From the NCBI GenBank assembly GCA_050012475.1, contig JBEKHC010000012.1:74-64073 (forward strand): a stretch of DNA of 64,000 nt, read 5' to 3'. The notes under the pieces are model-generated. The model saw only the letters and a list, made by a program, of their open reading frames with translations, was not told where the DNA came from and ran no database searches. Positions 9,304-51,110 of this stretch are shown piece after piece. The DNA is from Candidatus Velthaea sp. GTDB taxonomy: Bacteria > Vulcanimicrobiota > Vulcanimicrobiia > Vulcanimicrobiales > Vulcanimicrobiaceae. Position numbers and translations under genes: made by a program. Each line of letters begins with the position of its first letter. The stretch's first letter is position 1.

Positions 9304-9319
9304 GGATGCTCCGTTCAAA

Positions 9320-18288: not shown

Positions 18289-18311
18289 TAAGCACCCTCC
18301 GGTCGATTCAC

Positions 18312-19824: not shown

Positions 19825-20132
19825 GGCAAGTACGACTCGATGATCCGCGATCGATCGAGGGCCGGCTCCTCGAGCCCGCGAGCCGCGGCGCCGGCCGCGG
19901 CGTCGGGATCCCCGAACGCCGGGGCAAGCGCCGGAACGAACGCCGTCTCGATTGCGATGAGGTCGTCGATGAGTTCGGCGGGCGTCCGCTCCGCGTCGAA
20001 CCGCAGGCCGATCGTCGCACCCTCGGCGGTGCACTCCAGTATCCCCGCCGGCGCGCCCGGTCCGGCAAGTGCCTCCAATACGTTCGCGCGGACGAACGGA
20101 TCGGGAACGATGACGGTGCGCGCAAGTATCAC
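19821..20132 (-). CDS. hypothetical small acidic protein (103 aa) whose stop overlaps the cdaA start
   Basis: It is not a separate ORF in the track; it is the 3' tail of the 510-aa ORF 19821..21353. From GTG 20132 the hand translation reads VILARTVIVPDPFVRANVLEALAGPGAPAGILECTAEGATIGLRFDAERTPAELIDDLIAIETAFVPALAPAFGDPDAAAGAAARGLEEPALDRSRIIESYLP*. Third positions are mostly G/C and the Arg-rich junk signature is absent. The stop TGA overlaps the cdaA GTG. Confidence 0.5.
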   Translation of the reverse strand: MILARTVIVPDPFVRANVLEALAGPGAPAGILECTAEGATIGLRFDAERTPAELIDDLIAIETAFVPALAPAFGDPDAAAGAAARGLEEPALDRSRIIESYLP

Positions 20133-20156
20133 GGTTTCCGTTGGCTTCGCAAGCCG

Positions 20157-21485: not shown

Positions 21486-23882
21486 TCACGGATCGACGTT
21501 GATCGCGATGCGCGTCGCGCGTTCGTTACGCGCGGCGCTCACGATCCGTTCGCGTACGGCTGCGCGCGTCGTCGCGATATCGCGAGTCTTGAGCGCGAAG
21601 CGATAGCGCCATTCTTCGTTCAGTCGCGCGATCGCATAGGGCGCCGGACCTAAGACCTCCCAGCGCTCGTCGTCGCGCATCAACGCGGCATAGCGCTCGG
21701 CGGCCGCTTCCACCGCCGCGCGATCGCGGCCGATGATGCCGAGGTAAATGAGCCGCGTGAACGGCGGCCAGCGCAAGACGCGCCGGTCGGCCAGCTCACC
21801 GGCGGCGAAACCATCGTAGTCGTGGGCCGCCGCGAACGCAATCGCCGGATGTTCCGGCGAGTAGGTTTGAATGAACGCCTCGCCGGGCTGCGCCCGGCCG
21901 CTTCTTCCACACACTTGGGTGAGCAGCGCGAACGTGCGTTCCGCGGCGCGAAAATCGGCCACGTGCAAATCGAGATCGGCGGCGATCGCGCCGGCGAGCG
22001 TGACTTGCGGGAAATCCAGCCCTTTGGCGACCATCTGCGTGCCGACGAGAATGTCGCCATCGTCGACGAACCGCTCGAGCAATCGCGCGTGATCGCCGAC
22101 CCGCGTCGTGGTATCCGAATCCATGCGCACGATCCGCGCGCTCGGAAACAGTTCGAGCAGCTCGTGCGCCACGCGCTGGGTGCCAACACCCAAGGCCCGG
22201 ATCGGTCCGGTACCACAGCTCGGACAGGTTTGGGGAAGCGCTTTCTGCGCGTCGCAATAGTGGCAGCGCAGCAGCTCTTCGCTGCGATGAACCGTCAGCG
22301 ACACCGAACAGCGCGCGCACTGCGGGACGTGTCCACATGCGCGGCAGAGCAGAAAAGGCGCCGTGCCGCGCCGGTTCACGAACAAAACGGCTTTTTCGCC
22401 CCGCTGCAGCCGCGCATCGATTGCCGAGAGCAGCGGCGTGCTGAAGATTCGCCGGTTTCCGGCAGCGAACTGCGCGCTCATGTCGACGACGTGCGTTCGC
22501 GGCAGCGCTTGCGCCGTTGCGCGTTCGCGCAAGGTCAGCAAGGGGTAGCGTCCGGCACGAGCGCGCGCGTAGTCCTCGATCGCGGGCGTCGCGCTGCCCA
22601 GGACGAGCACGCCGCCGGCCCGCCGCATGCGCTCGCGTGCGACCTCGACGGCACTATACCGCGGCACCGAATCCTGCTTGTACGACGCTTCGTGTTCTTC
22701 GTCGACGACGACGAGCCGCACGTCGCCCAACGGCGCGAAGATCGCGCTGCGCGCGCCCACGACCACGGCGATTTCCCCGCGCGCTGCGGCTTGCCATGCG
22801 TCGAAGCGCTCGCGGTCCGAAAGTGCGGAGTGCAGCACGGCGACCCGGTCACCGAAAGCATCTTCGAAGCGCCGCGCCGTTTGCGGCGTCAGCGAAATCT
22901 CCGGAACGAGCACGATCGCGCGCTCCCCGGCCGCGATGACTTTGGCGATCGTGGCAAGATAGACGAGTGTTTTGCCGCTGCCCGTGATGCCGTGCAGCAG
23001 AACCTGCGCGTACGCGCGGGCTTCGACGAGCGCATCGATGCGTTCGATCGCCGTCCGCTGCTCGGCGGTGAACGCGAAATCCGGCAGATTCGAGCGGCCG
23101 TTGCGCACGACGTCGATCGGGCGCTGCGTTTCGACGAGCGCTCCGAGCGCGATCGCGCGCCGGATGACGGCGTCGGAGTACCCGGCCAGCACCGCTTCGC
23201 TGCGTTTGAGCTCACGGCATTCGCGCACGAACGCGACGAGAGCCGCGGCTTTCTTGCCGGCGACGGGGACGTCTCCCGGCTGCAGAAAACGCACCAGCGC
23301 GTCGTTCACCCGCGCCCCCGTGATGCTTCGCGTGCGGGTGAGCGCACCCGCCGCAACCAGCGCGCGCAAGTAACCGAGAATCGCCCGGCGGTCGCCGGCC
23401 CGGCGCACCTCGGGAGCGCGGAGAAACGTCTCGAGCGTGAAGCCGTCGGGGCAATCGTTCCAGATGAAATCGAGCAGCCGCGCCGGCACGCGGTCGTGCT
23501 GCGCGCTGCTTGCGGGACGAACCGCAAGGATGTAGCGTTCGACCGCGCGCGGCAACGCGGCGGTCAACACGACGGCGCTCAAAGCTTCGCCCAGCGTGCA
23601 GAGATAGGCGTCGGCGATCCATGCGGCGAGGCCGAAGCCGGTTCGGTCGAACGCGCGCGGGACATCGGCTTTGCCGGCAATCGCGCGCAAGTTCGGCGGC
23701 GGCTCGGCTTCGTCGCGCGGACCGGAAACGACGAAACCCCAAACCACGCGCGGACCGAGCGGGACGCGCACGACATCGCCTAGCGCAAGATCGCAGCCGG
23801 CGGGCACGCCATAGGTGAGCGGACGATCGAAGCGGGCGGTTTTGAGCTGCGCGAGAACGTCGACGACGCGAGTCAGCGAAAT
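21486..23882 (-). CDS. priA: primosomal protein N' (replication restart helicase)
   Basis: N-terminal 3'-DNA-binding block VVDVLAQLKTARFDRPLTYGVP...GDVVRVPLGPRVVWGFV. Walker A reads LLHGITGSGKT and the DExH box reads VVDEEHE. The Cys-rich zinc region is CRACGHVPQCARCSVSLTVH...CHYC...CPSCG. The start is unresolved (see findings); everything above about 23882 in the 1106-aa ORF is Arg-rich overlap with the next gene. Confidence 0.85.
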   Translation of the reverse strand: MSLTRVVDVLAQLKTARFDRPLTYGVPAGCDLALGDVVRVPLGPRVVWGFVVSGPRDEAEPPPNLRAIAGKADVPRAFDRTGFGLAAWIADAYLCTLGEALSAVVLTAALPRAVERYILAVRPASSAQHDRVPARLLDFIWNDCPDGFTLETFLRAPEVRRAGDRRAILGYLRALVAAGALTRTRSITGARVNDALVRFLQPGDVPVAGKKAAALVAFVRECRELKRSEAVLAGYSDAVIRRAIALGALVETQRPIDVVRNGRSNLPDFAFTAEQRTAIERIDALVEARAYAQVLLHGITGSGKTLVYLATIAKVIAAGERAIVLVPEISLTPQTARRFEDAFGDRVAVLHSALSDRERFDAWQAAARGEIAVVVGARSAIFAPLGDVRLVVVDEEHEASYKQDSVPRYSAVEVARERMRRAGGVLVLGSATPAIEDYARARAGRYPLLTLRERATAQALPRTHVVDMSAQFAAGNRRIFSTPLLSAIDARLQRGEKAVLFVNRRGTAPFLLCRACGHVPQCARCSVSLTVHRSEELLRCHYCDAQKALPQTCPSCGTGPIRALGVGTQRVAHELLELFPSARIVRMDSDTTTRVGDHARLLERFVDDGDILVGTQMVAKGLDFPQVTLAGAIAADLDLHVADFRAAERTFALLTQVCGRSGRAQPGEAFIQTYSPEHPAIAFAAAHDYDGFAAGELADRRVLRWPPFTRLIYLGIIGRDRAAVEAAAERYAALMRDDERWEVLGPAPYAIARLNEEWRYRFALKTRDIATTRAAVRERIVSAARNERATRIAINVDP

Positions 23883-24826
23883 TCGGCCGTCCCCGGCGTC
23901 GTCGTCAAGCGCGCGATCGAGCGCCGCAGCATCGCGCGCGGTATCGCCAATCCCGCTTCGACGTCGCCGATCGCGTGAGGCAACGCAAAGCGCGCATCCG
24001 CCGGAATCCGCTCGAGCACCGCATTCGCATCGATGCGCTCGTCGTGCAGCGCAAACCCCAACAGCGCGAGCACGGCAAGCACTCGCAGATGATCGCGTTC
24101 GCTGAAGTCCGCGACTTTGCGTGCGCTCAGGCAAGCCGCTCGAATGCCCAGCACCAGTGCGGTTTGCGGCGCGACGGTGCGCGTCGCGGCGATCGCCCGC
24201 GCAAACGGCAGCCCCAGATCGAGAATCTGCCGATCGTCGCCCGCGTGCATCCGGTCGACGCGCAGCGCGTCGTCGATGACCGACTCCCAGGGCCACTTGC
24301 GCAGCGGATGCGGCGAGAGCGTTTCCAAACCGTCGAAGAACTCGTCGCCTTCGATCAGCGCATCGCGCACGAGCGTTCCCAGGCCGTCCTTGGCCGAGCG
24401 CGGGATTGCGGCGTAGTCGACGATCAGCCCGAGCGGCGGCACCGCGACCGCGCTGGCGCCGCGCCGCGCGACCGGATCGACGCCGCGATCGATCGCGGCG
24501 CCGAGCGTGCGCGCAATGAGCAGCGTCCGCGCGCCGCCTTCGTACAACGCGGCGGCGAGCCGAATCGCGTCGAGCAGCGCCCCCGTTCCGCAGGCCACGA
24601 CGACGGTCCGGCTGGTCGCGGCGCGGCGTTTGAGCGCGGCGTGCAGCGTGTCGACGATGGCCAGCGTCGTGCCGCGGACATCGACGACCGCGACGCCTGC
24701 ACCGCCCGGCTGACGGGCAATGCGGCGGGCCAGCGGCAGTGCTTGGGTGTCGCAGAAGGTGACGAAGCGGCCGTCGCCGGCGGCTTCGCGCGCGGCCTTG
24801 GCGCAAGCGAGAGCGAGCAGATTCAT
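23873..24826 (-). CDS. divergent 3-dehydroquinate-synthase-like (DHQS/sugar-phosphate-cyclase fold) protein
   Basis: ATG at 24826 (MNLLALACAK). VVVACGTGALLDAIRLAAALYEGGARTLLIARTLGAAIDRGV resembles the GGG-loop/PTT region of the DHQS fold, but with substitutions. The family call is tentative. Confidence 0.4.
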   Translation of the reverse strand: MNLLALACAKAAREAAGDGRFVTFCDTQALPLARRIARQPGGAGVAVVDVRGTTLAIVDTLHAALKRRAATSRTVVVACGTGALLDAIRLAAALYEGGARTLLIARTLGAAIDRGVDPVARRGASAVAVPPLGLIVDYAAIPRSAKDGLGTLVRDALIEGDEFFDGLETLSPHPLRKWPWESVIDDALRVDRMHAGDDRQILDLGLPFARAIAATRTVAPQTALVLGIRAACLSARKVADFSERDHLRVLAVLALLGFALHDERIDANAVLERIPADARFALPHAIGDVEAGLAIPRAMLRRSIARLTTTPGTAEFR

Positions 24827-24920
24827 CCTGCCGGGGCCGGCGATACGATTTCGATCATGCGCGTCCGTCCTTCGCTTCGCGAACCCGGCAACACTGGATT
24901 TTGCGGCGGCGCGGCGCCGA

Positions 24921-25385
24921 TCAGGGCTGAGGCTGCGCGCCTCCGTTCGGACCGGGGACGAACGCCTCGAGCTCGGGCAGCAGTTCGACACTCTCTTGTT
25001 CGTTCGGATCGGTTCGCGCAATCACCGCAACGCACGTCTCATCGGTGCTCGCGTTGTACGGCAAGTGCGGCACGTTGGCCGGGATATAAAAGAAATCGCC
25101 CGGCCCGACCACCGAGTGATGCTCGAGCTTGGGACCGTGCCAAACGCCGGACGTCCCGCTGATTCCGTAGATCGCGCTCTCGTGCGCCACGTGCCGATGC
25201 GCCCTGGCCCGGCTGCCGGGCGGAATGCGGACGAGCTGCATGTGAATTCCGCGCGCGCCGACCGTTTCAGCCGACACGCCGGCTGCATACACCAGTCCCT
25301 GCTTGCCCACGAACTGCTCGCCCGCACGAACGAGGCGGCAGCTTTGCGGCTCGGACTCGTCGTGCGAATGATCGATGCCGTCCAT
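24921..25385 (-). CDS. cupin-domain protein
   Basis: The cupin motifs read IPPGSRARAHRHVAHESAIYGISG ... GPGDFFYIPANVPH. Confidence 0.65.
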   Translation of the reverse strand: MDGIDHSHDESEPQSCRLVRAGEQFVGKQGLVYAAGVSAETVGARGIHMQLVRIPPGSRARAHRHVAHESAIYGISGTSGVWHGPKLEHHSVVGPGDFFYIPANVPHLPYNASTDETCVAVIARTDPNEQESVELLPELEAFVPGPNGGAQPQP

Positions 25386-25424
25386 TGGTGGTCGTCTCCC
25401 TTCGCGATTGCCCTCCGACGATGG

Positions 25425-26861
25425 TCACCAGTTCGAGCGCACCGGAATCGTGAAGACGAACGTGCGCTTGAGGCCGGTGTCCTCGGTCAAGCGAACGCTG
25501 CACGTTCCGGCGGCCTGCGCGCGCAGATCGAACTCGACGTAAGGTCCGACGCCTTGGAAATCCGCGAGCAACGGGGTTGCGCCGGCCGGCGGCGCGGGAT
25601 CGGTATAGCCGGGCGGAACATCGGAGTCATTGTCGGAGCCGACGTCGATGGTGCAGGGCGGCCACGTGCCGTCGATCTGCAGCGTGACGCCGCCGAAGGT
25701 ATTCGCGGCATTGTAGGTTGCGTCGTCCCGAAACAAGAGTTGAACCTGGTTGCCCGGCGGAACGCTCGGTGCACTCGGTGCTTTTGGATTTCCGGCAACG
25801 CCGTTGCAGTCCGTGTTCGGTTTGGCGGGAACGCAGACCGCGATGTCGGTGATGTTGCTGACGATCGCTTTCGTGTACGTCGGGATGGTGAAGGCCGGTG
25901 CGCTGCACGTTTGTCCGCTGCCGGCCGGCGTGCAGGGCACGTAAATCGGCGGACCGTCCAGTCCCACGAACGACGAGTCGGGCTGCGCGTTCGGGCCGAG
26001 GATGAAGTTCACGACGTCGCCGGCGTTCGTTCCAAACGTCGTGCTCGAGCCCGTCTGTCCGGGCGCGAGCACGCAGTAGAACGACGGCGTTCCCAAGAGG
26101 TGGATTCCCGCCAAGCCCGGTCCGGCATTCGGGAGAAAGCAGGCGCTTTGAAACACGGTTCCGCCCGCAACGTTCGGCGGATCGAGCGCAAGTGAATTGG
26201 GGACCGCTGCGTTCGAGGTGAGTACGCTGGCGGTGCCGGCAATCGCCGGGAGCTGCGTGAATGAGGTCGAGGTTTCCGGCAGGACGGAGATCGTCAATGC
26301 CGTTTTCGCCGGAAACGTCAATTGCGTGACGGTCGGGGTGAACGTGATGGTATGGCCCGCTCCCGTGGCATCGCCGAGCTTGGTCGACACGAGCGTTTGC
26401 GGAACCGGATTCGATTGATAGGCGCTTGCGCCGAACAGCAGTCCATCGACCGAACACGAAACCTTCACACTGAAGCGGTCGATCGCGACCGTTACCGGAT
26501 GCGCAGCGGGGTTGAACAGAACGATCGGCGGGATTGGCGGACAAGTACCGTTCCCCATCGTGTTCCCCGCGGCGGCCGCTCGCGCCGACGCGATCCCGAT
26601 GGTCGCGGGTGAATCCAATGTGTGCAGCGTGACGGAACCGGTAAGCTGCGCGGCAAGCGAAACGGTCGTCGTTACCGGACTCGCGCCGATACGTACGTCA
26701 ACCGATTGCGCGGCTGCCGGCGCATTCGTTGCCTGAATGCTGTCCGCTTGAGCGGCGACGCCGGCGGGCGCCGGAGACGAACCTCCGCCGCCGCTGCATG
26801 CACCAAGCCCGGCGGCGGCAACGGCCGCACTAGCCGTAAGAAACAACGTGCGTAAAAACAT
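25425..26861 (-). CDS. Cys-rich Thr/Pro/Ala-rich lipoprotein, function unknown
   Basis: ATG 26861 with GAGGAG upstream. The lipobox reads AAAGLGAC followed by SGGGGS. The body is beta-rich and low-complexity with more than 10 Cys. No recognised domain. Confidence 0.55.
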   Translation of the reverse strand: MFLRTLFLTASAAVAAAGLGACSGGGGSSPAPAGVAAQADSIQATNAPAAAQSVDVRIGASPVTTTVSLAAQLTGSVTLHTLDSPATIGIASARAAAAGNTMGNGTCPPIPPIVLFNPAAHPVTVAIDRFSVKVSCSVDGLLFGASAYQSNPVPQTLVSTKLGDATGAGHTITFTPTVTQLTFPAKTALTISVLPETSTSFTQLPAIAGTASVLTSNAAVPNSLALDPPNVAGGTVFQSACFLPNAGPGLAGIHLLGTPSFYCVLAPGQTGSSTTFGTNAGDVVNFILGPNAQPDSSFVGLDGPPIYVPCTPAGSGQTCSAPAFTIPTYTKAIVSNITDIAVCVPAKPNTDCNGVAGNPKAPSAPSVPPGNQVQLLFRDDATYNAANTFGGVTLQIDGTWPPCTIDVGSDNDSDVPPGYTDPAPPAGATPLLADFQGVGPYVEFDLRAQAAGTCSVRLTEDTGLKRTFVFTIPVRSNW

Positions 26862-26980
26862 TGCGCAGCTCCTCAACGGTGGTCTAGGCAAGTACCAGGG
26901 AACCGCGCACTCCGCCTGCACGGCGCGCAAGCCGTCCCTGCAAGCGGAGTGACTCGAGCAACGCGCGAACATCGGCGCTG

Positions 26981-29737
26981 ATGGAGCCTGCCACCGTCGG
27001 TCCGGCGCAGTCCGTCACCACGCTCTTCATCAGCCGAGCCGGCGCCGATGCCGACATCGCTGCGGCAGCCGCACGTGCGCTGCAATCCGCCGGCTACGGC
27101 GTGATTCTGCAGCAGTGGGATTTCGCCAATCGAAATTTCATCGAGCGCATGCATGAAACGCTCAGCAGCGGCGCGCGCGTCATCGCCCTGCTATCGCCCG
27201 CCTACCTGCGCAGCGATCATTGTCAGGCCGAGTGGATGAATGCGATTGCCGACGACCCGCTCAACCGTAAACGGCGGTTGGTCGTCCTGCGCATCGCCGA
27301 CTGCGAACCGCCGGGGCTGCTCGCCGGGATCGCCTATTGGGATCTCGTACCGGTTCGCGACGACGCGACGCTGTTCGCCCAGGTCGTCTGCGCGGCGGTG
27401 AGCGACGACGGAAGTGATGCGGTCGCGTCCGCCGCCGGCTATCGGTGCGAACCGCGCGCCGCGCCGGCTCCGCGTCCGCCGGTTCAAACCAATTTGCCCG
27501 CCGAACTCAAGAGTTTCGTCGGCCGCGAAACGGAAGTCGCCGAGATCGCCCGGCTGCTCGAAAATGCCCGCCTCGTCACGCTCGTCGGCGTGGGCGGCGT
27601 GGGCAAGACCAGCTGTTCGCTCAAAGCCGGAGCTTCGCTGGCCGCTAGCCGGCCGGACGGGGTCTGGTTCGTCGACCTCGCGCCGATCACCGACGCGACC
27701 CTCGTCGACGCCGAAGTTGCGGCGGTGTTTTCGCTCGTCGAAGCGTCGAATCGCTCGATCCTCGACCGGCTCGTCAAGCATCTGCGACCCAAACACACGT
27801 TGATCTTGCTCGACAATTGCGAGCACGTGCTCGCTGCGTGCTGCCGGCTGGCCGAGGCGGTGTTGCGCGCGTGTCCCGAGGTATCGCTGCTCGCAACGAG
27901 CCGCGAAGCGCTCAAAGTCGACGGCGAACGCGTGTACGCGATGCCGACGCTGGCCGTACCCGAGCGCAATGTGCGCCTCACCGTCGACGCGGCATCGAAA
28001 TACAGCGCGATCGCACTGTTCGTTGCGCGCGCCAGCGGGGCCGATTCCCGTTTCGCCTTGACGGCCGAAAACGTAGCCAGCGTCGCGGAGATCTGCCGCC
28101 GGCTCGACGGCATTCCGCTGGCGCTCGAACTAGCCGCGGCGCGCGTTCGCGTGCTGGCGCCGCGTCAACTCGAGCAGAAGCTCGACGAACGTTTCCGCAT
28201 TCTCACCGGCGGAGCGCGGACCGCGCTGCCGCGTCAGCAAACGATGCGCGCGCTCATCGACTGGAGTTACGATCTGCTCGACGCGCGCGAGCGATCGCTC
28301 TTGAGCAAGCTCTCGATTTTCGCCGGAAGTTTTTCGCTCGAGCCGGTCATCGCCGTTTGCAGCGATGCTGACTACGCCGATTTCGAAGTGCTCGACGGCC
28401 TGACGTCGCTGGTCGACAAATCGCTGGTGGTTGCCGAATCCTCGGACCTCGAAACGCGCTATCACCTGCTCGAGTCAATGCGGCAATATGCGCGCGAGCG
28501 GCTCGACGAGTTCGGGTCACGCGCTCCAACGGAGCGCCGGCACGCGCTCGCGTACACGGAGTTAGCCGAACAGCTCGAGAACGACTATGGGAGCACGCTG
28601 TATCGAACGTGGGTCGCCGGCGCCGAGCGGGAGATCGAGAACATTCGCGCCGCGCTGACGTGGTCGTTCGGGCCGCAGGGCGATGCCGCAGTCGGGCTGC
28701 GGCTCGCCGCAACGCTGCGCCGCATCTTCAACACTTCGCTGCCGGCCGAAGGCCGGCGTTGGATTCAAACGGCACTCGGACGGGTGGACGCCGGCTCAGC
28801 GCGCAACGTCGTGGCCCGGCTGGAGTTGGCCGATGCGCATCTGGCCTCGCGGCTCAACCAGCTGGATGCCGCGCTCGCGGCGGCGCGCCGCGCGCTGACC
28901 TCTTTCGAGGCCGACGGCGATCCGCGCGGCATCGCGAACGCGAAGCGCTGGGCGGGCCGTTCGCTGATCTATTTGGGTCAAGTGAGCGAAGGTGAAGAGC
29001 TGTTGCGCAGCGCGCTCGAGACCTACGAAACGCTCGGCTTCCGGAAAGTCGGCGGCGTCTTGCTCGATCTCGGCTCGGCGCGCTCCGCTTGCAGCGACAT
29101 CGCCGGTGCGCGCGGTTTTTTTGCGCGGGCACTCAACCGCTTCGAGGAAGATCAGGACGAAGGCAACGTCGCGATTGCGGCGGGAACCCTGGCCGAAGCC
29201 GAATTTCATGGCGGCGATGCGCAGGCGGCCGTCGCGCATGCGCAAGATGCGCTTTCCACTGCGCAACACCTTGCGCGCGACATCCTTGCCTGGCTTCAAA
29301 ACAACCTCGCGGCATACGCGATCGCGCTCGATCGATTCGACGAAGCGGGCCGGTACTCGGAACAAGTGCTGCAAAGCAGGCTCGAGATTCAATCGGAATT
29401 TTTGTTCGTCGTCGCATTGCAGCATGCGGCCGCGGTGCTCGCACTCGCACCCCCTGTGGATGCGCCGGGTACCTGCGCCGCGACGTGCCAACTGGGGGCG
29501 CGTTTGATCGGCTACGTCGACGAACGGATGCGCGCGATGGGCGCAAAGCGAGAGTTCACCGAGCAGTCGGATTACGATCGGGCGATGGCGCTCCTGACCG
29601 AGACGTTGGGTACTGCGGCGCTCGGCACGCTCGTGCTCGATGGAGCGAAGCTTTCCGAAGAGCAGGCGGTTGGATTGGCCTTGGCGGCGTCTGTGCGCCG
29701 GCCAAATCACGCTGCGATCGGCCGCGTTTCGACCTGA
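26981..29737 (+). CDS. TIR domain - NB-ARC/COG3903-type STAND ATPase - TPR-like repeat protein
   Basis: The N-terminal TIR_2-like block reads TLFISRAGADAD...VIALLSPAYLRSDHCQAEW. It is followed by FVGRETEV, Walker A LVGVGGVGKTS, Walker B TLILLDNCEH and the GLPL-type motif LDGIPLALELAAAR. About 400 aa of helical TPR-like repeats close the protein. Confidence 0.75.
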   Translation: MEPATVGPAQSVTTLFISRAGADADIAAAAARALQSAGYGVILQQWDFANRNFIERMHETLSSGARVIALLSPAYLRSDHCQAEWMNAIADDPLNRKRRLVVLRIADCEPPGLLAGIAYWDLVPVRDDATLFAQVVCAAVSDDGSDAVASAAGYRCEPRAAPAPRPPVQTNLPAELKSFVGRETEVAEIARLLENARLVTLVGVGGVGKTSCSLKAGASLAASRPDGVWFVDLAPITDATLVDAEVAAVFSLVEASNRSILDRLVKHLRPKHTLILLDNCEHVLAACCRLAEAVLRACPEVSLLATSREALKVDGERVYAMPTLAVPERNVRLTVDAASKYSAIALFVARASGADSRFALTAENVASVAEICRRLDGIPLALELAAARVRVLAPRQLEQKLDERFRILTGGARTALPRQQTMRALIDWSYDLLDARERSLLSKLSIFAGSFSLEPVIAVCSDADYADFEVLDGLTSLVDKSLVVAESSDLETRYHLLESMRQYARERLDEFGSRAPTERRHALAYTELAEQLENDYGSTLYRTWVAGAEREIENIRAALTWSFGPQGDAAVGLRLAATLRRIFNTSLPAEGRRWIQTALGRVDAGSARNVVARLELADAHLASRLNQLDAALAAARRALTSFEADGDPRGIANAKRWAGRSLIYLGQVSEGEELLRSALETYETLGFRKVGGVLLDLGSARSACSDIAGARGFFARALNRFEEDQDEGNVAIAAGTLAEAEFHGGDAQAAVAHAQDALSTAQHLARDILAWLQNNLAAYAIALDRFDEAGRYSEQVLQSRLEIQSEFLFVVALQHAAAVLALAPPVDAPGTCAATCQLGARLIGYVDERMRAMGAKREFTEQSDYDRAMALLTETLGTAALGTLVLDGAKLSEEQAVGLALAASVRRPNHAAIGRVST

Positions 29738-44065: not shown

Positions 44066-45412
44066 ATGTCATTTCCCAAGAAAGTCACAATGCGTCACTT
44101 ATTTCTCCCGAGCGCGATAACGTTAGCTCTCGCACTGAGCGCCTGCGGCGGGTCGAACAGCGGCACCGCCCTTCCGCAACAATCGACGTTGACGACGTCG
44201 GCACAGCGGACGTTGCGCGCACCACTCGGATCGAAGAGCATTCTGCCCGAGACGAGTGCTACCACCACGCAAGCGGGACTGTGCACGAAACCGGCAGATG
44301 CAGCGCATGCCGGCTGTTTCGCGACGATCCGCACCGACTCGGTGATCAGTTCGATCTTCCCGGACTCCGTCTGGGGTTTGACTCCCAGAGATTTGAGTTC
44401 ACTCTACGCGTATCCGGCTCCGGGATGGCAAGGAACGGCAGGCGCCGGCCAGACCATCGCGGTCGTCGTTGCTGGTGACTACGAACTGGCCGAATCCGAT
44501 TTGGGCGTCTATCGCTCGCACTTCAGCCTGCCGCCCTGTACGACGGCCAACGGCTGCTTCAAGAAAGTCGGCGCCGCCGCGACCGGGCAGACCGCCCAAA
44601 CCGGCAGTTCGGCGTCGGTGTCGGCGCATCCAACGACTGCGACGGCGATCGGCTGGGCCGGCGAAACCGACACGGACACGCAAATGGTTTCGGCCGTCTG
44701 TCCGAATTGCAAAATTATCGTCGCCGAAGCGGCATCGGACAGCATGACCGACCTCGGCATGGCCGTGGAGGCCGCGATCGCCGCGAACGCTTCGATCATC
44801 AACGTGAGCTTCGGCGCCACCGAGAGCAGCAGCGACGTTGCGTGGTCTTCGCAGTACAACGGCATGAAACACGTGAAATTAGTTGCCGCCGCAGGCGACT
44901 GGGGCTACGGCGTGTACTACCCGGCGTCGGATCCCAGCGCGATTGCGGTCGGCGGCACCTCGCTCTCCGCGAGCGGCTCGACGATTTCCGAAACCGCGTG
45001 GGCCGGGACCGGCAGCGGCTGCAGCGCATACTTCAGCAACCCCGGATGGCAGCATCCGCCGTCGGTCACCGGCACCTGCACGCGGCGCAACGTCGTCGAC
45101 GTCTCGGCCGTGGCCGATCCGCTGACCGGCGTGGCCATCTACGACAGCTCGCTCTTCGGTATCGTCGGCGGCTGGTCGATCTTCGGCGGCACGAGCGTCT
45201 CGGCGCCGATCATCGCCGGGATGAATGCACTCGCGGCCAATACCGCGCGCGGCCAAGGCGCACAACTCCTGTACAGCGCTGCTTCGTCTGCCTTCCTCCC
45301 GGTGACGAGCGGTTCGAACGGAACCTGCAGCCCGCAGTATCTGTGCACGGCGCTCACGGGCTACAACGGCCCGACGGGACTCGGTATTCCTCAAGGGCTC
45401 GGCGGCTTCTAG
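44066..45412 (+). CDS. S53 (sedolisin-like) / S8 superfamily serine peptidase, lipoprotein
   Basis: The lipobox reads LALALSAC. IAVVVAGDY...DLGVYRSHFSLPPC, GWAGETDTDTQM (Glu/Asp block) and the C-terminal GGTSVSAPIIAGMNAL (catalytic Ser) are present. No long pro-domain is seen. Confidence 0.6.
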   Translation: MSFPKKVTMRHLFLPSAITLALALSACGGSNSGTALPQQSTLTTSAQRTLRAPLGSKSILPETSATTTQAGLCTKPADAAHAGCFATIRTDSVISSIFPDSVWGLTPRDLSSLYAYPAPGWQGTAGAGQTIAVVVAGDYELAESDLGVYRSHFSLPPCTTANGCFKKVGAAATGQTAQTGSSASVSAHPTTATAIGWAGETDTDTQMVSAVCPNCKIIVAEAASDSMTDLGMAVEAAIAANASIINVSFGATESSSDVAWSSQYNGMKHVKLVAAAGDWGYGVYYPASDPSAIAVGGTSLSASGSTISETAWAGTGSGCSAYFSNPGWQHPPSVTGTCTRRNVVDVSAVADPLTGVAIYDSSLFGIVGGWSIFGGTSVSAPIIAGMNALAANTARGQGAQLLYSAASSAFLPVTSGSNGTCSPQYLCTALTGYNGPTGLGIPQGLGGF

Positions 45413-45418
45413 GCCGCC

Positions 45419-48013
45419 GTGGTCCCGCATATGGATAGCCGACGAGCGAGGATTCAAGCGGCAATCGGCCGCGCCTCACACCTGCCGGTGACACTTCTGG
45501 TGGCGCCGGCAGGAACGGGAAAGAGCACAGCACTCGGACATTTCCTCGAATCGATCGATGAATCGGTTGACGGCGCGGCGCTGCGATTCGACGTGCGGGC
45601 CGCGCACACGACCCTGACCCGATTCGTTCGCGGGGTCGCCGCGACGCTCCAGCCCAAACTTCCCAAAGTCTCCCAGTCGCTGTCGATCGCTCATGAGCGC
45701 GCGACACAATCGGCGCGACCCGCCGACGTTCTGGCAATCTGGCTCGCCGAGCACCTTCGCGACACCCGGCGGACCATCGTCATCGACAACTACCATCATT
45801 GCGAGAACGATCCCACGATCGCCGCGTTCGTCGCGGGCGTCGTGGAACGGACCCGGCCCACGACCCGCTGGATCATCGCAACCCGCTCGGCCGCCCAGCT
45901 CCCGTTCGCGACCTGGCTCGCGCGCGGCGACACGACGATGCCGATCGGCGAGGCCCAGTTACGACTCACGGCTGCGGAAGCGGCATTCTATACCGAACGA
46001 ATCGCACCACGGCTCGACGCTCACGCCGCACGACAACTGCTTGAAGCGACGAGCGCTTCGATCGGCCAGATGCTCTTCGCGCTTCAGACTACCGCGGCGG
46101 ACGCCGCGATCGCCAAACGCGTGCTCGACGCAGGCGGGAACGCGTTCGAACGCTGTGTCGACGAGACGCTCGCGCTGCTCACACCCGTCGAACGACGGCT
46201 CGTCATCGAGAGCAGCCGGTTCCCCGATCTCGACGAAACGCTGCTGTCAGCTGCCGGACACCTCGACGCGCATCGCCAAATCGCTTCATTGCAAGCTCTT
46301 ATCCCGCAAGCATTCGAGGGCCATGGGCCGCAGCTTCGCTACAAGACGCTCTTCGCCGACGTGCTGTGGGACCGCCTCGTGGCGCAAGGTGTCGACGCGG
46401 TCCACGACGCGCACGCCCGAACCGGACACGCGCTCGCGACCTGCGACCGCATCGTCGAAGCGCTTGCGTACTACATTCACGGACGTCAATTCAGCGCAAT
46501 TGCGCAACTCATCGAATCACGCGGCCTGGCCTTCGTCGAAGCGGGCTGCGGGGACACGATCCAAGAAGCGATCGAAACGCTCGATCCCATCGCGCGCACC
46601 TCGAGTCCGGTCATTCTCGCGATTCGAGCGACGTTCGAGTCGCGGCTGGGCCGGTTCGATACCGCGGAGTCGTTGTTTCAACTAGCGCTCGACCGTGCCA
46701 CCGACGCCGGCGTCCGCAATCACATCGCTTACCAATACGGAACGCACTTGCTGCGGTTTCAGCGCCCCGAAGCGATCGAATTGCTCGAAACACTCGCCGA
46801 AGACGGCCGGGCATCAGGCGATCTGCGCTGCTACGCGCGCTCGGCGCTCGGACCCGCCTACGTCTTCGCGCGTCGGTATGACGAAGCGTTAGCCAGCATC
46901 GATGCTGCGCTAGAGCTCGCCCAGACATCGTTCAGCACACACCTGCGGGCGAGAGCCTTCCATCAAGCCGCCTACGTCGCACTGTTTCGGGGCGACGGCG
47001 CACGGGCGAAAACGTTGGCAACGCTCTCACTGGAACTGGCGGAACGGGACGGCTTCTTCGACATCTCCGCCGGTGCGTTGACCGTGCTCTATAACGTGGC
47101 CTCAGACCTCGAGGACGATCCGCTCGAAAGCCTGCGTCTGCTCGATGCGGTCGCGGAATGTGCCGCCAAGTCGGGCAGTCTCACCAACCATCTCTTGGCG
47201 CTGGTCGCCAAACTCGAGATCGAAGTCGAACGCGGCGACGAAGACGCGATCGGCGAACTCGACGAGAAACTCCGCACGATCGACGTGCAAAGCTGCGGGC
47301 GCGCGATGTATGAGGCGCTCGTCGCTTCGCAGGCCTTGCGCGCCGGCTGGGACGGCGATTTCGCGGGCGCGTATCATTTGCTGTTGTCGAGCGCCGAATT
47401 GCAGTGGAGCGCCGACCGGAAAGCGCTGCGCTGGGCCGAGATTTCCGTCTATGCGGCCGCTGCCGGGTTGGCCGTCGAAGCGACGATGGCCGTGCGCTCG
47501 TCGGTCGAGTTGCTCGACTCGCTCGCGGGCGGACATCGGATCGCGCGCGCTCGCCTCTTTCTCGCACTGACGATGATCCTCTTAGGGCGGATCGAATCGG
47601 CTGCTGAACTCTTCGAACTCATCGATGCCGATCCGCATGCTTCGTCACCGCGGCTGCAGGCGCTGCGCCGAGCGCTGCAGGCGCTCTCCGAGCGGTATCG
47701 CGGAATTCGAAACCAAGGCGCCTTGATCGGCCTGTTTCAAACGCTCGCCGAGCAGCAGTTCGGCGGCGTGGCGCGCATGATCATGACTTTCCCGCTGGCC
47801 GACAATGCCACGCTGCGCCTGGGCAGCCTCAATTGGGGCGAACGCTCGATCCTGGCCAAGCTGACGCGGGGCGACCTGCTCGTCAGCGCGCGCCAAGTCG
47901 AAACGATCGTCGCGAAACTCGGTTGCCACGACATCGCGACGGCCATGCGGGCCGTCACGCGCAACGCTCACTCGCCCGAACTGGGCGCCCACGTCATCCT
48001 CCAGGAGGCCTGA
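45419..48013 (+). CDS. MalT/LuxR-like STAND ATPase regulator
   Basis: Walker A reads LLVAPAGTGKST and Walker B reads TIVIDNYHH. A long helical repeat region follows. The short, degenerate C-terminal LuxR-type HTH reads ERSILAKLTRGDLLVSARQVETIVAKLG. GTG 45419 or ATG 45431 lies 7-19 nt after the peptidase stop. Confidence 0.7.
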   Translation: MVPHMDSRRARIQAAIGRASHLPVTLLVAPAGTGKSTALGHFLESIDESVDGAALRFDVRAAHTTLTRFVRGVAATLQPKLPKVSQSLSIAHERATQSARPADVLAIWLAEHLRDTRRTIVIDNYHHCENDPTIAAFVAGVVERTRPTTRWIIATRSAAQLPFATWLARGDTTMPIGEAQLRLTAAEAAFYTERIAPRLDAHAARQLLEATSASIGQMLFALQTTAADAAIAKRVLDAGGNAFERCVDETLALLTPVERRLVIESSRFPDLDETLLSAAGHLDAHRQIASLQALIPQAFEGHGPQLRYKTLFADVLWDRLVAQGVDAVHDAHARTGHALATCDRIVEALAYYIHGRQFSAIAQLIESRGLAFVEAGCGDTIQEAIETLDPIARTSSPVILAIRATFESRLGRFDTAESLFQLALDRATDAGVRNHIAYQYGTHLLRFQRPEAIELLETLAEDGRASGDLRCYARSALGPAYVFARRYDEALASIDAALELAQTSFSTHLRARAFHQAAYVALFRGDGARAKTLATLSLELAERDGFFDISAGALTVLYNVASDLEDDPLESLRLLDAVAECAAKSGSLTNHLLALVAKLEIEVERGDEDAIGELDEKLRTIDVQSCGRAMYEALVASQALRAGWDGDFAGAYHLLLSSAELQWSADRKALRWAEISVYAAAAGLAVEATMAVRSSVELLDSLAGGHRIARARLFLALTMILLGRIESAAELFELIDADPHASSPRLQALRRALQALSERYRGIRNQGALIGLFQTLAEQQFGGVARMIMTFPLADNATLRLGSLNWGERSILAKLTRGDLLVSARQVETIVAKLGCHDIATAMRAVTRNAHSPELGAHVILQEA

Positions 48014-48021
48014 GTCGTTCG

Positions 48022-48969
48022 ATGCTTACCCTCAACGATCCGCAAAAATATCTCGATCGCTGCCGTGACGAAATCGTTTGGCGCATCATCAGCGACGGGG
48101 TTCTCGAAGGGCAGCGGACGCTCGCGGTCGGTGTCGTCGCCGAAGAATTCTTCGATCGTTTGATGATCGCGCTCGAGCGCAGCTCGTATCTCGACATCGT
48201 CACCTGGGTGGACCGGATTTGTGAATCGTATCGCGGCTTTCCCCAAATTGGTTCGATGCTCGCCAGCGCGTGCCGGTCGGTCATCGCGCAACTGGGCGAC
48301 GCGGAAGTGGGGGCTGACGAACTCGTGCGCGGCCTCGGCGCACTCGAACACTCGATCTGCGCGGTCGCCTTCAAGCCGCGTCCGCTGCGCGTCAAGTCGG
48401 AGGCTCCGCTGGATGAAGTCGACGTCCTGATCCGGGGACTGATCGATCGCCTCGAGGCAGCCGATCCGCTGTCCGCCGAACATTCGCTCGCGGTGTCCGC
48501 TTGGTGCCGGCGCATCGGGCGGCGGCTCTCGCTTTCGGAGACCGAAGTCACCTACATCGCACGCTGCGGCCTCATGCACGACGTCGGCAAAGTCAAAGTC
48601 GCCGGTGAGATTCTCACGGCGCCGCGCGCCTTGACCGACAGCGAATGGGTGGTGATGCGCTCGCATTCGCTCGCCAGCGAAGAGATCGTGGGCGCGCACA
48701 AAGCGTTGCGGAGCTTCGCGCCCGCCGTGCGGTCGCATCACGAGCGCCTCGATGGCCGGGGATATCCCGACGGCCTCGTCGGTTCACAAATTACGCTCGC
48801 GACGCGAATCGTCACGGTCGCCGACGCCTTCAACGCGATGATCGGACGCCGCGCCTATCGGCTGCCGATCTCGCCCGAAAACGCGCTGGACCGTTTGCAC
48901 GAAAACCGCGGCGGTCAATTCGATCCGATCGTCGTCGAAGCGATGGCCAGCGTCGTCGGACACAATTGA
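48022..48969 (+). CDS. HD-GYP domain protein (c-di-GMP phosphodiesterase class)
   Basis: GLMHDVGKVKV and HHERLDGRGYPDGL are present. ATG 48022 has AGGAGG inside the last codons of the upstream gene. The ORF-track start at 47833 is overlap junk. Confidence 0.8.
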   Translation: MLTLNDPQKYLDRCRDEIVWRIISDGVLEGQRTLAVGVVAEEFFDRLMIALERSSYLDIVTWVDRICESYRGFPQIGSMLASACRSVIAQLGDAEVGADELVRGLGALEHSICAVAFKPRPLRVKSEAPLDEVDVLIRGLIDRLEAADPLSAEHSLAVSAWCRRIGRRLSLSETEVTYIARCGLMHDVGKVKVAGEILTAPRALTDSEWVVMRSHSLASEEIVGAHKALRSFAPAVRSHHERLDGRGYPDGLVGSQITLATRIVTVADAFNAMIGRRAYRLPISPENALDRLHENRGGQFDPIVVEAMASVVGHN

Positions 48970-48979
48970 CAGCAGCGTG

Positions 48980-48996
48980 GTTCAGCTGCGCTGAAC
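48980..48996. terminator. 7-bp perfect hairpin between convergent genes
   Basis: GTTCAGC-TGC-GCTGAAC. No flanking U/A tract, so termination function is unproven. Confidence 0.25.
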
Positions 48997-49000
48997 GCGC

Positions 49001-49088
49001 GGCGTTCGGCGCTTCGGGCCAAGCCGCGGCGGCGTTTGGCGCTTCGGGCTATGGTGCGTCGCGTTTCGGCTGCGCCGGAAAGTTCGGT
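49001..49088. repeat. about 30-bp periodic degenerate direct repeat (3 units)
   Basis: GGCGTTCGGCGCTTCGGGC (49001) and GGCGTTTGGCGCTTCGGGC (49031) differ at 1 nt. A weaker third copy, GCGTTTCGGCTGCGCC, starts at 49061. Confidence 0.6.
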
Positions 49089-50662
49089 TAGACCTCTTGC
49101 GCGTGGGAGAAGATCGCGGTGAGTTCGGCCGGGTCCGTGTACACGCCGCCCAGCGCCGCCAGCCGATCCATCACCGTCGTCATGCCGAGCCGGACGATCC
49201 ATTCGGCAGCGGCCTCGATGCTTGCCGGATTGCCGCCCAGATGACGGATCAGCGCGCGGCCCGCAGCGGCATCGCCGCCGCCGTGAAAGGCCAGTAAGGC
49301 TAACGCCGCTTCGTCGTCGAGCGGAGGAACGACGATCGTTCGTTCAGCAGCGATGCGCAGCGGCGCATCCGCGGCTGCGACGATCGAAACACTCGACGTC
49401 CGCTCGCAAAGGTGGCTGCACAGAGCGCGGATCTCGGTTCGCGCGTGCTGCACATCGTCGAGAATGACGATCGCTTGGCGATCCGCAAGAAAATCCGTCA
49501 CCGCGTCGAGCGCGCCTCCCGGGTCGATCGAGAGGTCGCACGCGGACGCTAAGGCGATCGCGGGGTCGATATCGGCGCGCAGCAGTTCGGATTCGACAAA
49601 CACAACGGGGCGGTGAAGCCGGTTTGCAGCTTGTTCGGCGACCAGCATGAGCAGCCGGCTCTTGCCGACTCCCGGCGCGCCTACGATCGTCAGCATGCGC
49701 GTGTGGTGCAGGGCCGACATGATCCGCGCAAGATCGTCGTCTCGGCCGAAGCTGGGAGCGTCAGCCGACGCGAAGGTGTTGCCCCGTCCGGTCAGCTTGG
49801 CGACGACCGGGGCCTTTGAGACAAAGGTTCCCGCGCAGATGCGATTTCGCCCGAAGCGCTTTGCTTGGTACAGCGCACGATCGGCCTCTTCCACGAGTTC
49901 GGTCATCGTGCGTTGACCGGTTGGATTCGCTGATGCGAGTCCCGCACTGAGCGAAACACGCCCGAGCGTCGTGCCGGCATGTTCGATATGCAGCGTCGCG
50001 AGCCGATCGAAGACATGCTGCACTTCCTCGACGGCGAGCTCCAGCGACGTTTCTGCAAAAACGAGCGCGAACTCTTCGCCGCCGTAGCGAGCCGCAAAGC
50101 CGTCGTCTCCGTCGCGCCGCTTGACCAGCAGCGAGGCAACCTGCTGGAGACAACCGTCACCGGCGATATGTCCGTATCGATCGTTGTACGGTTTGAAATA
50201 GTCGACGTCGACGAGCGCCATGACGAGCGAACTCCCGCGCGTTGAAGCGCGATCCCACGCTTCGGGCAGATGTTCGTCGAAAGCCCGCCGGTTCGGGATG
50301 CGGCAAAGCGAGTCGACGTTCGCCGTTTCCCCGTCGCGCCCGCGCCGCTCCGGGCGCTGACGGTAACCGATCGCCGCCGCAAGCGGCGCTGCTAGGAGTT
50401 GCAGGCTTTCTTCGGTCTCCCTTGCAAGCGCTGCTGTACCCGCATGCACCCGCATTATGCCGATAACCTTGCCGTCCAGGCGAAGCGGAAACTCGGTGCC
50501 CGGCTTGCTGCTTGCGCCGGCGCAGGCTAACAGAATCTCGATTCGGGCCGGGTAAACGGCGGCGCTGAGCGCCGCTTCGACGTTTGCGATCAGCGACGGA
50601 AGCGAACTCGGCGTTTCCACAGCAGCGGCGATCGCTCGCAGCGCCGTTGGCAATAGCAGCAT
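49088..50662 (-). CDS. GAF-like - GGDEF (GGEEF) - C-terminal STAND-type P-loop NTPase fusion
   Basis: ATG 50662 (MLLLPTALRA). The GGDEF domain reads NRRAFDEHL..ALVDVDYFKPYNDRYGHIAGD...ARYGGEEFALVF...ALYQAKRFGRN. It is followed by FGRDDDLARI, Walker A LTIVGAPGVGKSRL, Walker B AIVILDDVQH and the GLPL-like motif LGGNPASIEAAAEW. No repeat sensor domain follows. Confidence 0.75.
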   Translation of the reverse strand: MLLLPTALRAIAAAVETPSSLPSLIANVEAALSAAVYPARIEILLACAGASSKPGTEFPLRLDGKVIGIMRVHAGTAALARETEESLQLLAAPLAAAIGYRQRPERRGRDGETANVDSLCRIPNRRAFDEHLPEAWDRASTRGSSLVMALVDVDYFKPYNDRYGHIAGDGCLQQVASLLVKRRDGDDGFAARYGGEEFALVFAETSLELAVEEVQHVFDRLATLHIEHAGTTLGRVSLSAGLASANPTGQRTMTELVEEADRALYQAKRFGRNRICAGTFVSKAPVVAKLTGRGNTFASADAPSFGRDDDLARIMSALHHTRMLTIVGAPGVGKSRLLMLVAEQAANRLHRPVVFVESELLRADIDPAIALASACDLSIDPGGALDAVTDFLADRQAIVILDDVQHARTEIRALCSHLCERTSSVSIVAAADAPLRIAAERTIVVPPLDDEAALALLAFHGGGDAAAGRALIRHLGGNPASIEAAAEWIVRLGMTTVMDRLAALGGVYTDPAELTAIFSHAQEV

Positions 50663-50783
50663 CCGTTCGTAATTTCGGCAATTCTGCACGGAAAACGATG
50701 CTGCTGCCCGGCGCGAGCGTTTTTCGCAGCCCAATTGGGTCGCGCGCAGGCGCGCGCGAGGCCATCTTTACCGAGAAAAAATG

Positions 50784-51110
50784 CTACCCGGCGGTCTTAC
50801 GCGGATGTTTGCGCGGACGGCGCACGGGCGTGGCCGACGGGCCCGTCGCGCCGGAACCGTTAGCCGATTCCCGCGCCGGTGCCGGCACCTGCGCTTGATG
50901 CGTTATCGTCCCGATCTGCGAGCCCAGGACGTGCCGTACCGTCACGTCGTGAATCGAAGCGAGGAAATCGTCGTCAACGAGAAACACGTCGAAAATTCCC
51001 GGCACGCGTTCCTTGAGTTTCACGATTTCCGCCGGCGGTTGAGGTTCGAGTTCCGGTGCGATGACTTCGATCGCCCGATAGAGGCGGTTCGCGGCATCCT
51101 GGAGGTTCAT
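50784..51110 (-). CDS. hypothetical small protein upstream of the GGDEF-NTPase gene
   Basis: ATG 51110 with AAGGAG upstream. The product begins MNLQDAANRLYRAIEVIAPELEPQPPAEIVKLKERVPGIFDVFLVDDDFLASIHDV... and has a basic, disordered tail. Confidence 0.45.
   Translation of the reverse strand: MNLQDAANRLYRAIEVIAPELEPQPPAEIVKLKERVPGIFDVFLVDDDFLASIHDVTVRHVLGSQIGTITHQAQVPAPARESANGSGATGPSATPVRRPRKHPRKTAG

Follow-up and report, generated by a model that had tools for sequence, protein, structure and literature searches.

As a rule, STAND NTPases act through DNA-binding, death or immune effectors, and in these proteins, MalT of Escherichia coli included, a ligand together with ATP opens and oligomerizes the nucleotide-binding oligomerization domain (NOD). 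The enzymes that make and break cyclic dimeric guanosine monophosphate (c-di-GMP) are normally gated by small fused sensors of the REC, PAS or GAF type. Here we describe a four-gene locus in which the two kinds of protein meet, at 44066-50662 of a stretch of 64,000 nucleotides from Candidatus Velthaea sp. (GenBank assembly GCA_050012475.1, contig JBEKHC010000012.1, positions 74 to 64,073, forward strand), hereafter the window. The locus encodes an exported sedolisin lipoprotein peptidase, a MalT-clade STAND NTPase, an HD-GYP phosphodiesterase and a GGDEF cyclase that carries a truncated STAND module. The proteins have recognizable domains with intact catalytic motifs, their genes are conserved as a linked set and are in places fused, and the set is taxonomically restricted. 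As judged from sequence, this is probably an Eremiobacterota-specific c-di-GMP signalling module, in which a STAND protein with an HD-GYP effector is opposed by a P-loop-gated cyclase, and not a defence system. A first-pass annotation of the same DNA had left the choice between a switchable c-di-GMP circuit and a defence-like module undecided; the evidence favours the former.

The closest described systems each share part of this design. The module STAND resembles MalT in its NOD, made up of a nucleotide-binding domain (NBD), a helical domain (HD) and a winged-helix domain (WHD), in its helical-repeat sensor and in its Walker A and B motifs. Unlike MalT, it has no detectable LuxR/GerE DNA-binding domain, and its putative effector is an HD-GYP protein that is encoded separately or fused to it. 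The hydrolase that makes the ligand of MalT belongs to the mal regulon itself, and a periplasmic hydrolase feeding inducer to MalT offers an analogy for the module peptidase. The Rap-Phr (RRNPP) systems of Firmicutes combine an extracellular peptidase of the subtilase clan, a cytoplasmic TPR-like receptor and a hydrolase output, and subtilases mature the Phr peptides. The module would follow a comparable logical scheme, by analogy only; it differs in that no pro-peptide gene is conserved, the receptor would be an ATP-dependent STAND, the output would be a second-messenger phosphodiesterase and the peptidase is co-encoded. In the LapD-LapG pair, a transmembrane receptor with degenerate GGDEF-EAL domains (LapD) is matched with a cysteine peptidase (LapG). 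The module, too, encodes c-di-GMP enzymes together with an exported protease, but its peptidase is a sedolisin and it includes no transmembrane c-di-GMP receptor, the STAND, HD-GYP and cyclase proteins being devoid of predicted transmembrane segments. The module HD-GYP has all the metal-binding and GYP residues and an N-terminal regulatory region, as do RpfG (REC-HD-GYP), PmGH, PA4781 and DvhD (PAS-HD-GYP); its input region is an orphan helical domain rather than REC, PAS or GAF, and its partner, or fusion partner, is an 800-aa STAND. Finally, the mycobacterial proteins Rv0386, Rv1358 and Rv2488c have a class III adenylyl cyclase-ATPase-TPR-LuxR architecture (bioRxiv 10.1101/2024.03.06.583649). 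Like the window cyclase they join a palm-fold nucleotide cyclase to a P-loop STAND-type ATPase, whereas the window protein has a GGDEF cyclase, its NTPase stops after the first helical domain (HD1) without WHD, TPR or helix-turn-helix (HTH), and it is locked into a four-gene module. No description of such a module came up in a full-text literature search for HD-GYP or GGDEF with STAND, NB-ARC, MalT, sedolisin or Eremiobacterota. The parts are known and the wiring is new: the STAND would have an HD-GYP as its effector, the cyclase bears a truncated STAND module, and the sedolisin is an obligate partner.

All five open reading frames (ORFs) listed by the first-pass annotation are present where it placed them. 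The window has about 65% G+C, and its proteins share 99-100% identity with those of a Candidatus Velthaea sp. metagenome-assembled genome (P0001, P0121, P0182). The parts of the locus are:

44066-45412, plus strand: exported lipoprotein peptidase of the sedolisin family (S53), with which the operon starts (Pfam and PDB profile)
45419-48013, plus strand: MalT-clade STAND NTPase of 864 aa, NBD-HD-WHD followed by a helical-repeat sensor; alternative ATG start at 45431
48022-48969, plus strand: HD-GYP phosphodiesterase (HD_5), an orphan helical N-domain plus the catalytic domain
48970-49087, no strand: convergent intergenic spacer with a GC-rich hairpin and a degenerate direct repeat
49088-50662, minus strand: cyclase with mini-GAF-like, GGDEF and truncated STAND NTPase parts (GGDEF and AAA_16/AAA_22)
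50784-51110, minus strand: ORF of 108 aa, a lineage-specific orphan outside the module

Conservation, rearrangement and fusion of the module genes

The GGDEF-NTPase architecture of the window cyclase recurs in about 26 relatives at the level of protein clusters, at 39-99% identity. The peptidase, STAND, HD-GYP and GGDEF-NTPase genes are adjacent in seven of the seven independent lineages examined (the window with L001, and L002, L003, L004, L005, L008 and L014), and the co-occurrence on which the first-pass annotation had staked its proposal was found in every related locus examined. Loci were collected by pattern-based scans, and the locus counts given here are lower bounds. The seventh four-gene lineage, L014, came from a genome scan and belongs to a metagenome-assembled genome (MAG) that is labelled Rhodospirillales and may be mis-binned; with this exception, all module relatives bear Eremiobacterota or Vulcanimicrobiota names. 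The orientation of the cyclase gene changes between loci, as listed here with the identity of each diguanylate cyclase (DGC):

L001: DGC 99% identical; convergent
L002: DGC 67% identical; convergent
L003: DGC 50% identical; all four genes co-directional, with overlapping HD-GYP and cyclase genes
L004: DGC 47% identical; convergent
L005: DGC 46% identical; convergent; the peptidase-STAND-HD-GYP trio occurs twice, in tandem
L008: DGC 39% identical; cyclase gene divergent from the trio

Further clusters appear to be co-located in the same way, as is suggested by longest contigs of matching length (for example 14852, 26018, 36673, 45886, 70012 and 75102 bp) in three separate protein searches. The flanks of the four-gene set vary from locus to locus and include rpsT/priA/aro genes, ABC transporters, a TonB receptor, and flagellin with a PilZ-bearing methyl-accepting chemotaxis protein (MCP-PilZ). 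Some synteny persists: the module of L008 lies directly beside rsgA-cdaA-glmM, genes that are 23 kb from the module in the window, and the window, L004 and L005 all have a transglutaminase gene close to the module. In L002 the module is flanked by a HAMP-MCP-PilZ chemoreceptor (17018-19441) and a flagellin (8978-9778), and a flagellin gene also occurs near the trio of L044. These neighbours hint at motility as a downstream process, and they are not conserved.

A genome scan with the STAND alignment widened the picture to at least 29 loci, which hidden Markov models (HMMs) built from the module alignments divide into 3 of type A, the type of the window, and 26 of type B. In type B (L015-L040) a STAND of about 31-34% identity is followed by the HD-GYP and then by the peptidase, a permuted order. 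The trio is also present in L042-L046. L042 contains two type B trios in tandem, together with an EAL gene and one more S8 peptidase; in L043 the peptidase, STAND, HD-GYP and a GGDEF/EAL gene form a single operon; and in L044-L046 a type B trio lies between a PucR-like regulator and Nramp/MgtE. One contig of 339 kb holds both type A and type B copies. Immediately upstream of the L043 operon (L043:1296-5735) is a gene for a bacterial alpha-2-macroglobulin, a protease inhibitor of 1479 aa. The cyclase was considered as a core component and rejected: GGDEF or EAL genes near type B trios were seen only in L015 and L030 (plus L042 and L043), which is roughly the background. All-against-all clustering of type B flanks returned shared synteny only and no additional conserved module gene. 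A metagenome scan with an alignment of the NTPase alone used patterns that were too generic, recovering unrelated STANDs of 25-34% identity and only three family members, on short contigs, and so added nothing to the neighbourhood statistics.

The most telling arrangement is fusion. In at least three species the STAND and the HD-GYP make up a single polypeptide of about 1100 aa. Single ORFs in which the STAND precedes the HD-GYP occur in L016 (1121 aa, from an Illumina assembly), L020 (1109 aa) and L035, and L037 and L030 are partial cases; Pfam HD_5 matches the C-terminus of both the L016 and L020 proteins. Where the two genes are unfused, they overlap by 4 nt or lie 1-10 nt apart. In the L020 and L035 fusions the orphan N-domain of the HD-GYP is missing and the catalytic domain directly follows the STAND, which fits an adaptor role for the N-domain, because an adaptor would be needed only in trans.

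Domain composition of the four proteins

None of the four module proteins is unusual in size, and each is either soluble or secreted. The HMM check of the GGDEF, HD-GYP and NTPase assignments proposed in the first-pass annotation confirmed them by Pfam. The STAND matches AAA_22, NPHP3_N, AAA_16 and TPR_12 (30.7 bits, cut-off 30.1), and its profile aligns with the MalT NOD (8BOB, E 2e-21) over residues 5-386. The Walker A motif GxGKS/T and the aspartate of Walker B (hhhhD) are conserved in the family. The earlier label 'MalT/LuxR-like' stands in its first half, for a MalT-clade NOD, and falls in its second. LuxR/GerE HTH (PF00196) has no match (E<0.01) in the window STAND or in any of about 50 relatives, and alignment of 39 type A tails with the C-termini of true MalT/LuxR proteins by hhalign gave only 15 columns (E 0.006, probability 6%). 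Because no LuxR HTH is detectable, the STAND is not a MalT-type transcription factor. Family members are labelled MalT at JGI; the NCBIfam MalT model scores 77 bits, far under its cut-off of 537, and identity to true MalT/LuxR proteins is about 26%. The type A tail, about 70 aa long, is roughly 12 residues too short for an HTH and keeps a motif, 'KLGC.D..A..RA'; type B STANDs do not have it and end in, or are fused to, the HD-GYP. Mean pairwise identity among 39 type A STANDs is 0.59 for the NBD, 0.48 for the HD-WHD, 0.65 and 0.59 for the two halves of the sensor and 0.39 for the tail, the least conserved region. The helical-repeat sensor is conserved over residues 391-790 and, as the most conserved region of the STAND, is under the tightest constraint.

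The HD-GYP is the best-conserved module protein, at 60-81% identity against 39-67% for the cyclase. It matches PF13487 (HD_5) with E 7e-30 (104.5 bits, cut-off 27.2), and H186, D187, H215, H239, H240, E241, D244, G245, G247, Y248 and P249, which make up the HD/HHE/DGxGYP signature, are invariant in 68 HD-GYP sequences. In the AlphaFold2 (AF2) model, with a predicted local distance difference test score (pLDDT) of 92, residues 7-116 form an all-helical N-domain, which a disordered linker joins to the HD-GYP domain. Foldseek retrieved the c-di-GMP enzymes DvhD, PmGH and PA4781 (9RBZ, 4MCW and 4R8Z; E 1e-9 to 1e-8, template modelling score on the target 0.75-0.80). Only the catalytic half aligned in this search of the PDB, and the N-domain stays an orphan; among 1.84 billion representative proteins it has 7 matches, all of them HD-GYPs of 315-330 aa. 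We regard it (residues 1 to about 125, 48022 to about 48400) as the likely candidate for a domain that docks on the STAND.

The cyclase consists of a mini-GAF-like N-domain (residues 1 to about 102), a GGDEF domain (about 111-280) and a truncated STAND NTPase of NBD and HD1 (about 308-524). The GGDEF assignment is firm (PF00990, E 9e-40, 136.6 bits, cut-off 23.8; TIGR00254, E 1.5e-41, 141.9 bits, cut-off 37.4), and 26 sequences share, without exception, GGEEF at 194-198 and the guanine-reading residues Asn160 and Asp169. An aspartate with GGEEF denotes a diguanylate cyclase, while Hypr synthases of cyclic GMP-AMP (cGAMP) carry serine at the aspartate position (PMC6456294). By its sequence, Asn160/Asp169/GGEEF, the window protein has the canonical c-di-GMP signature. 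The alignment of the cyclases shows no RxxD I-site at the canonical position. In the AF2 model (pLDDT 86) an α/β N-domain resembling a mini-GAF is followed by the GGDEF domain and by a P-loop domain of five strands, whose helical bundle stops after a GGNP ('GxP') motif. Of the architecture 'GAF-GGDEF-P-loop' proposed earlier, the GGDEF and P-loop parts were borne out, and the GAF part amounts to a mini-GAF-like fold of about 100 aa, as indicated only by the model and a GAF_2 match in one homologue.

The NTPase of the cyclase has Walker A (GAPGVGKS) and Walker B (Asp402) motifs, both conserved, and no WHD or sensor. The locus had been described as containing two STAND ATPases, of which the second is truncated to NBD-HD1. 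By hhalign this part aligns with NBD-HD1 in full-length GGDEF-STAND-TPR proteins from the same phylum (E 4e-27), which are unlinked to the trio (L041), and only weakly the MalT-like NOD of the module itself (E 7e-7, 19% identity). On these alignments it is a sensor-less NBD-HD1 fragment of a different, AfsR/NB-ARC-like STAND clade. Searched against the PDB by sequence, the NTPase part had no significant match, and in the Foldseek search of the whole model GGDEF structures saturated the list, which carries no information on the NTPase part. In L041 (1-4956), the gene for the full-length GGDEF-STAND-TPR protein P0030 (892 aa) precedes a cNMP-binding/Peptidase_M50 gene and a small Frankia_peptide-like gene, another cyclase-STAND-protease neighbourhood in the same phylum.

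The peptidase matches Pfam Peptidase_S8 (E 4e-10), and a profile of seven orthologues finds kumamolisin (1GT9, S53) in the PDB with E 4e-24. Glu200/Asp204, the oxyanion Asp278 and Ser377 align with the E/D/D/S of kumamolisin and are invariant in the orthologues. Together with a lipobox, LALSAC|GG (LSAC at residues 24-27), this bears out the earlier call of an S53-like lipoprotein peptidase. A signal peptide or lipobox and seven invariant cysteines are present in all seven orthologues, and the signal peptide is the sole hydrophobic segment of the window protein. The long activation domain of pro-kumamolisin was not found, as no Pfam match lies N-terminal of residue 174; the stretch from the lipobox to the catalytic domain is a pro-region of only about 70 aa. 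Within this otherwise variable linker the motif RxLRxPLGxxSI (residues about 48-59, within 44066-44360) is invariant; it may act as a mini-propeptide, inhibit the enzyme that contains it or be released as a peptide. The gaps between HD-GYP and peptidase genes, mostly 60-150 nt, contain no conserved small ORF or pro-peptide gene. Every duplicated STAND/HD-GYP pair has a peptidase paralogue of its own (L005, L042).

Gene spacing and surroundings in the window

The tight operon seen in the first reading of the sequence is real. The STAND gene starts 6 nt after the peptidase gene if a GTG is its start codon and 18 nt after it if the ATG is, as in the public gene calls (860 aa); the gap between STAND and HD-GYP is 8 nt. 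The Shine-Dalgarno sequence of the latter, AGGAGG at 48003-48008, is within the STAND gene, a spacing that suggests translational coupling. The repeat and hairpin reported between the two arms were likewise recovered in the convergent spacer: two degenerate tandem copies of 30 nt, 83% identical (48999-49028 and 49029-49058), and a hairpin at 48988-49012. The spacer is probably a bidirectional transcription stop, a function that we infer. A consensus scan of it called no T-tract terminator, and a sigma-70 promoter scan found none, such a scan being uninformative for this phylum. The 108-aa ORF, once counted as part of the locus, drops out: it has no match in Pfam, NCBIfam or PADLOC, and because L001, the 99%-identical relative, alone keeps it and all other module loci lack it, we do not assign it to the module.

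The genes around the module are ordinary: a TMEM175 channel, a dehydrogenase, a DsbH-like thioredoxin, a transglutaminase-like protein, Usp, GntR and ABC transporters. A 685-aa GGDEF-EAL protein encoded separately at 7246-9303 (plus strand) shows that other c-di-GMP enzymes are encoded nearby. No c-di-GMP riboswitch was found in the window; the only riboswitch of that sort is one for c-di-AMP, elsewhere (RF00379, 16617-16781, minus strand, 69.6 bits against a gathering score of 38). It is upstream of an ORF at 15943-16611 (minus strand) and adjoins glmM (16927-18288), with RsgA at 19812-21047. About 15 kb upstream of the module and unrelated to it, a protein of 918 aa (26981-29737, plus strand) has TIR_2 (E 5e-23) at its N-terminus together with an nSTAND1/AAA_16 NTPase and TPR_12 repeats, and is plausibly a genuine, NLR-like defence gene. 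Two ORFs of 382 and 515 aa just upstream of it (23873-26972, minus strand) have coding-like GC content at third codon positions and no Pfam match.

A model for the module and its alternatives

How might a STAND protein and two opposed c-di-GMP enzymes work together? In the model that we propose, a conserved cytoplasmic ligand binds the helical-repeat sensor of the STAND, which, by analogy with MalT and other STANDs, would open and oligomerize once ligand and ATP are both bound. The oligomers would then switch the HD-GYP by induced proximity or allostery and so change the rate of c-di-GMP breakdown. In the unfused type, the N-domain of the HD-GYP would dock on the STAND, while in other species the two are a single polypeptide. 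We interpret the HD-GYP as the output of the STAND on account of the fusions, the tight gene coupling, the module-specific N-domain and the missing HTH taken together. The cyclase is likely to be switched on through nucleotide-dependent self-association of its own sensor-less P-loop module; this is a plausible activator because GGDEF domains act as dimers and must pair to make c-di-GMP. The locus would thus hold a maker and a breaker in opposition, each gated by a P-loop oligomerization device. c-di-GMP fits as the messenger because, where the trio is accompanied by a dedicated nucleotide enzyme, this enzyme has a GGDEF domain in every case (GGDEF-NTPase in type A, GGDEF-EAL in L043). The exported sedolisin, in turn, may make a peptide or other breakdown product outside the cytoplasm, which would be imported and then sensed.

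Several observations weigh against this model or narrow it. The evidence is computational and MAG-derived throughout, the family being known from sequence alone, and the pattern-based scans give an incomplete view of prevalence and copy number across the phylum. The fusions speak for functional coupling but do not show in which sense the STAND would regulate the HD-GYP, and the STAND could even be a receptor for c-di-GMP. Against the PDB, the HD-GYP aligns best by sequence with V-cGAP3, which hydrolyses 3'3'-cGAMP (E 9e-45), so that the choice between c-di-GMP and 3'3'-cGAMP as substrate is not proven: by sequence the protein is nearest to a cGAMP-specific enzyme, by structure to c-di-GMP enzymes, and its partner is a canonical DGC. 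Within 8 kb, type B loci have neither a GGDEF-NTPase nor any other dedicated cyclase, which makes the cyclase accessory rather than core. Co-assembly of cyclase and STAND is doubtful, since their NTPases belong to different STAND clades. Furthermore, no transporter, transmembrane relay or pro-peptide gene that could link the exported peptidase to the cytoplasmic proteins is conserved.

The role of the peptidase is accordingly the least certain part of the module. Generation of the ligand is our best guess, and a tentative one. A fuller version, in which the surface-anchored sedolisin cuts environmental or self proteins, or its own pro-region, and an imported peptide binds the helical-repeat sensor and acts through ATP-driven assembly of the STAND to set the HD-GYP against the cyclase, is a speculation to which we give a lesser, though real, chance. 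The main alternative is that the peptidase is a co-expressed, regulated output, as in the Lap system: it would cut a surface adhesin or matrix protein, or scavenge protein, while the STAND senses an unrelated intracellular metabolite and low c-di-GMP, with the phosphodiesterase on, is coupled to proteolytic release or feeding. Co-transcription of the peptidase with the phosphodiesterase in either gene order is in keeping with this, as are the LapD/LapG precedent for a periplasmic protease under c-di-GMP control, the MCP-PilZ and flagellin flanks of L002 and the flagellin of L044, and the protease inhibitor beside L043. Yet the module encodes no membrane-spanning receptor that could relay cytoplasmic c-di-GMP to the periplasm, the motility flanks are not conserved, and a generic output would not need a separate peptidase paralogue for each duplicated STAND/HD-GYP pair, so we hold an output of this kind to be unlikely. 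It is less probable still that the STAND is a classical activator whose tail binds DNA and switches on its operon, with the peptidase and the HD-GYP as mere members of the regulon. The clearly MalT-like NOD, the MalT labels and a tail motif that recalls the last LuxR helix would be expected of such a protein; the failure to detect an HTH and a tail that is short, poorly conserved and lost in type B, where the STAND ends in or is fused to the HD-GYP, would not.

Defence deserves separate weighing, as STAND NTPases and nucleotide signals are common in antiviral systems, module paralogues occur in tandem and several to a genome, and the TIR-STAND-TPR gene is 15 kb away. By analogy with CBASS, Pycsar, type III CRISPR and Avs, the STAND would sense infection, the GGDEF domain would supply a nucleotide signal, and the HD-GYP, the protease or both would serve as effector or reset. 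PADLOC matched no system model, giving only sub-threshold similarity to generic HD (Cas3) and palm (Cas10, E 9e-4) domains, and a scan of viral contigs found no relatives. The family is confined to one phylum, diverges as orthologues do, and sits among housekeeping flanks with residual synteny (rsgA/cdaA/glmM, transglutaminase); its sensor is the most conserved STAND domain instead of a diversifying one, and its cyclase is a canonical DGC of the housekeeping type. Moreover, the only candidate for a toxic or degradative effector is exported and therefore cannot kill an infected cell. An anti-phage role, the second option of the first-pass annotation, is for these reasons very improbable. That the genes are neighbours by descent alone, with no joint function, is hardly credible: shared flanks in L004/L005 and at many type B loci indicate that part of the conservation is plain synteny, but the linkage outlasts three changes of orientation, a permutation of gene order, block duplications and complete turnover of the flanks, and the fusion of STAND and HD-GYP in several species, together with these rearrangements, effectively refutes it.

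A switchable c-di-GMP circuit, in which synthesis and breakdown of the messenger are tied to STAND-type NTPases in a conserved and apparently undescribed module, thus remains the reading that the evidence favours, and the STAND::HD-GYP fusions have strengthened it since it was first put forward. What would such a circuit mean for the bacteria that carry it? Eremiobacterota are, to our knowledge, a widespread uncultured phylum of soil and peat whose signalling biology is almost unknown, and the pattern-based scans indicate that the module is abundant and multi-copy among them. If the model is correct, control by an oligomerization switch would be added to second-messenger turnover, and there would be an example of how a MalT-like regulator can swap one output domain for another. 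That an exported sedolisin is an obligate partner hints that c-di-GMP inside the cell is connected with proteolysis outside it. Should the sensor prove to be coupled to proteolysis, RRNPP signalling would have in this module a STAND-based counterpart from diderms, with each paralogous trio tuned to the product of its own peptidase.

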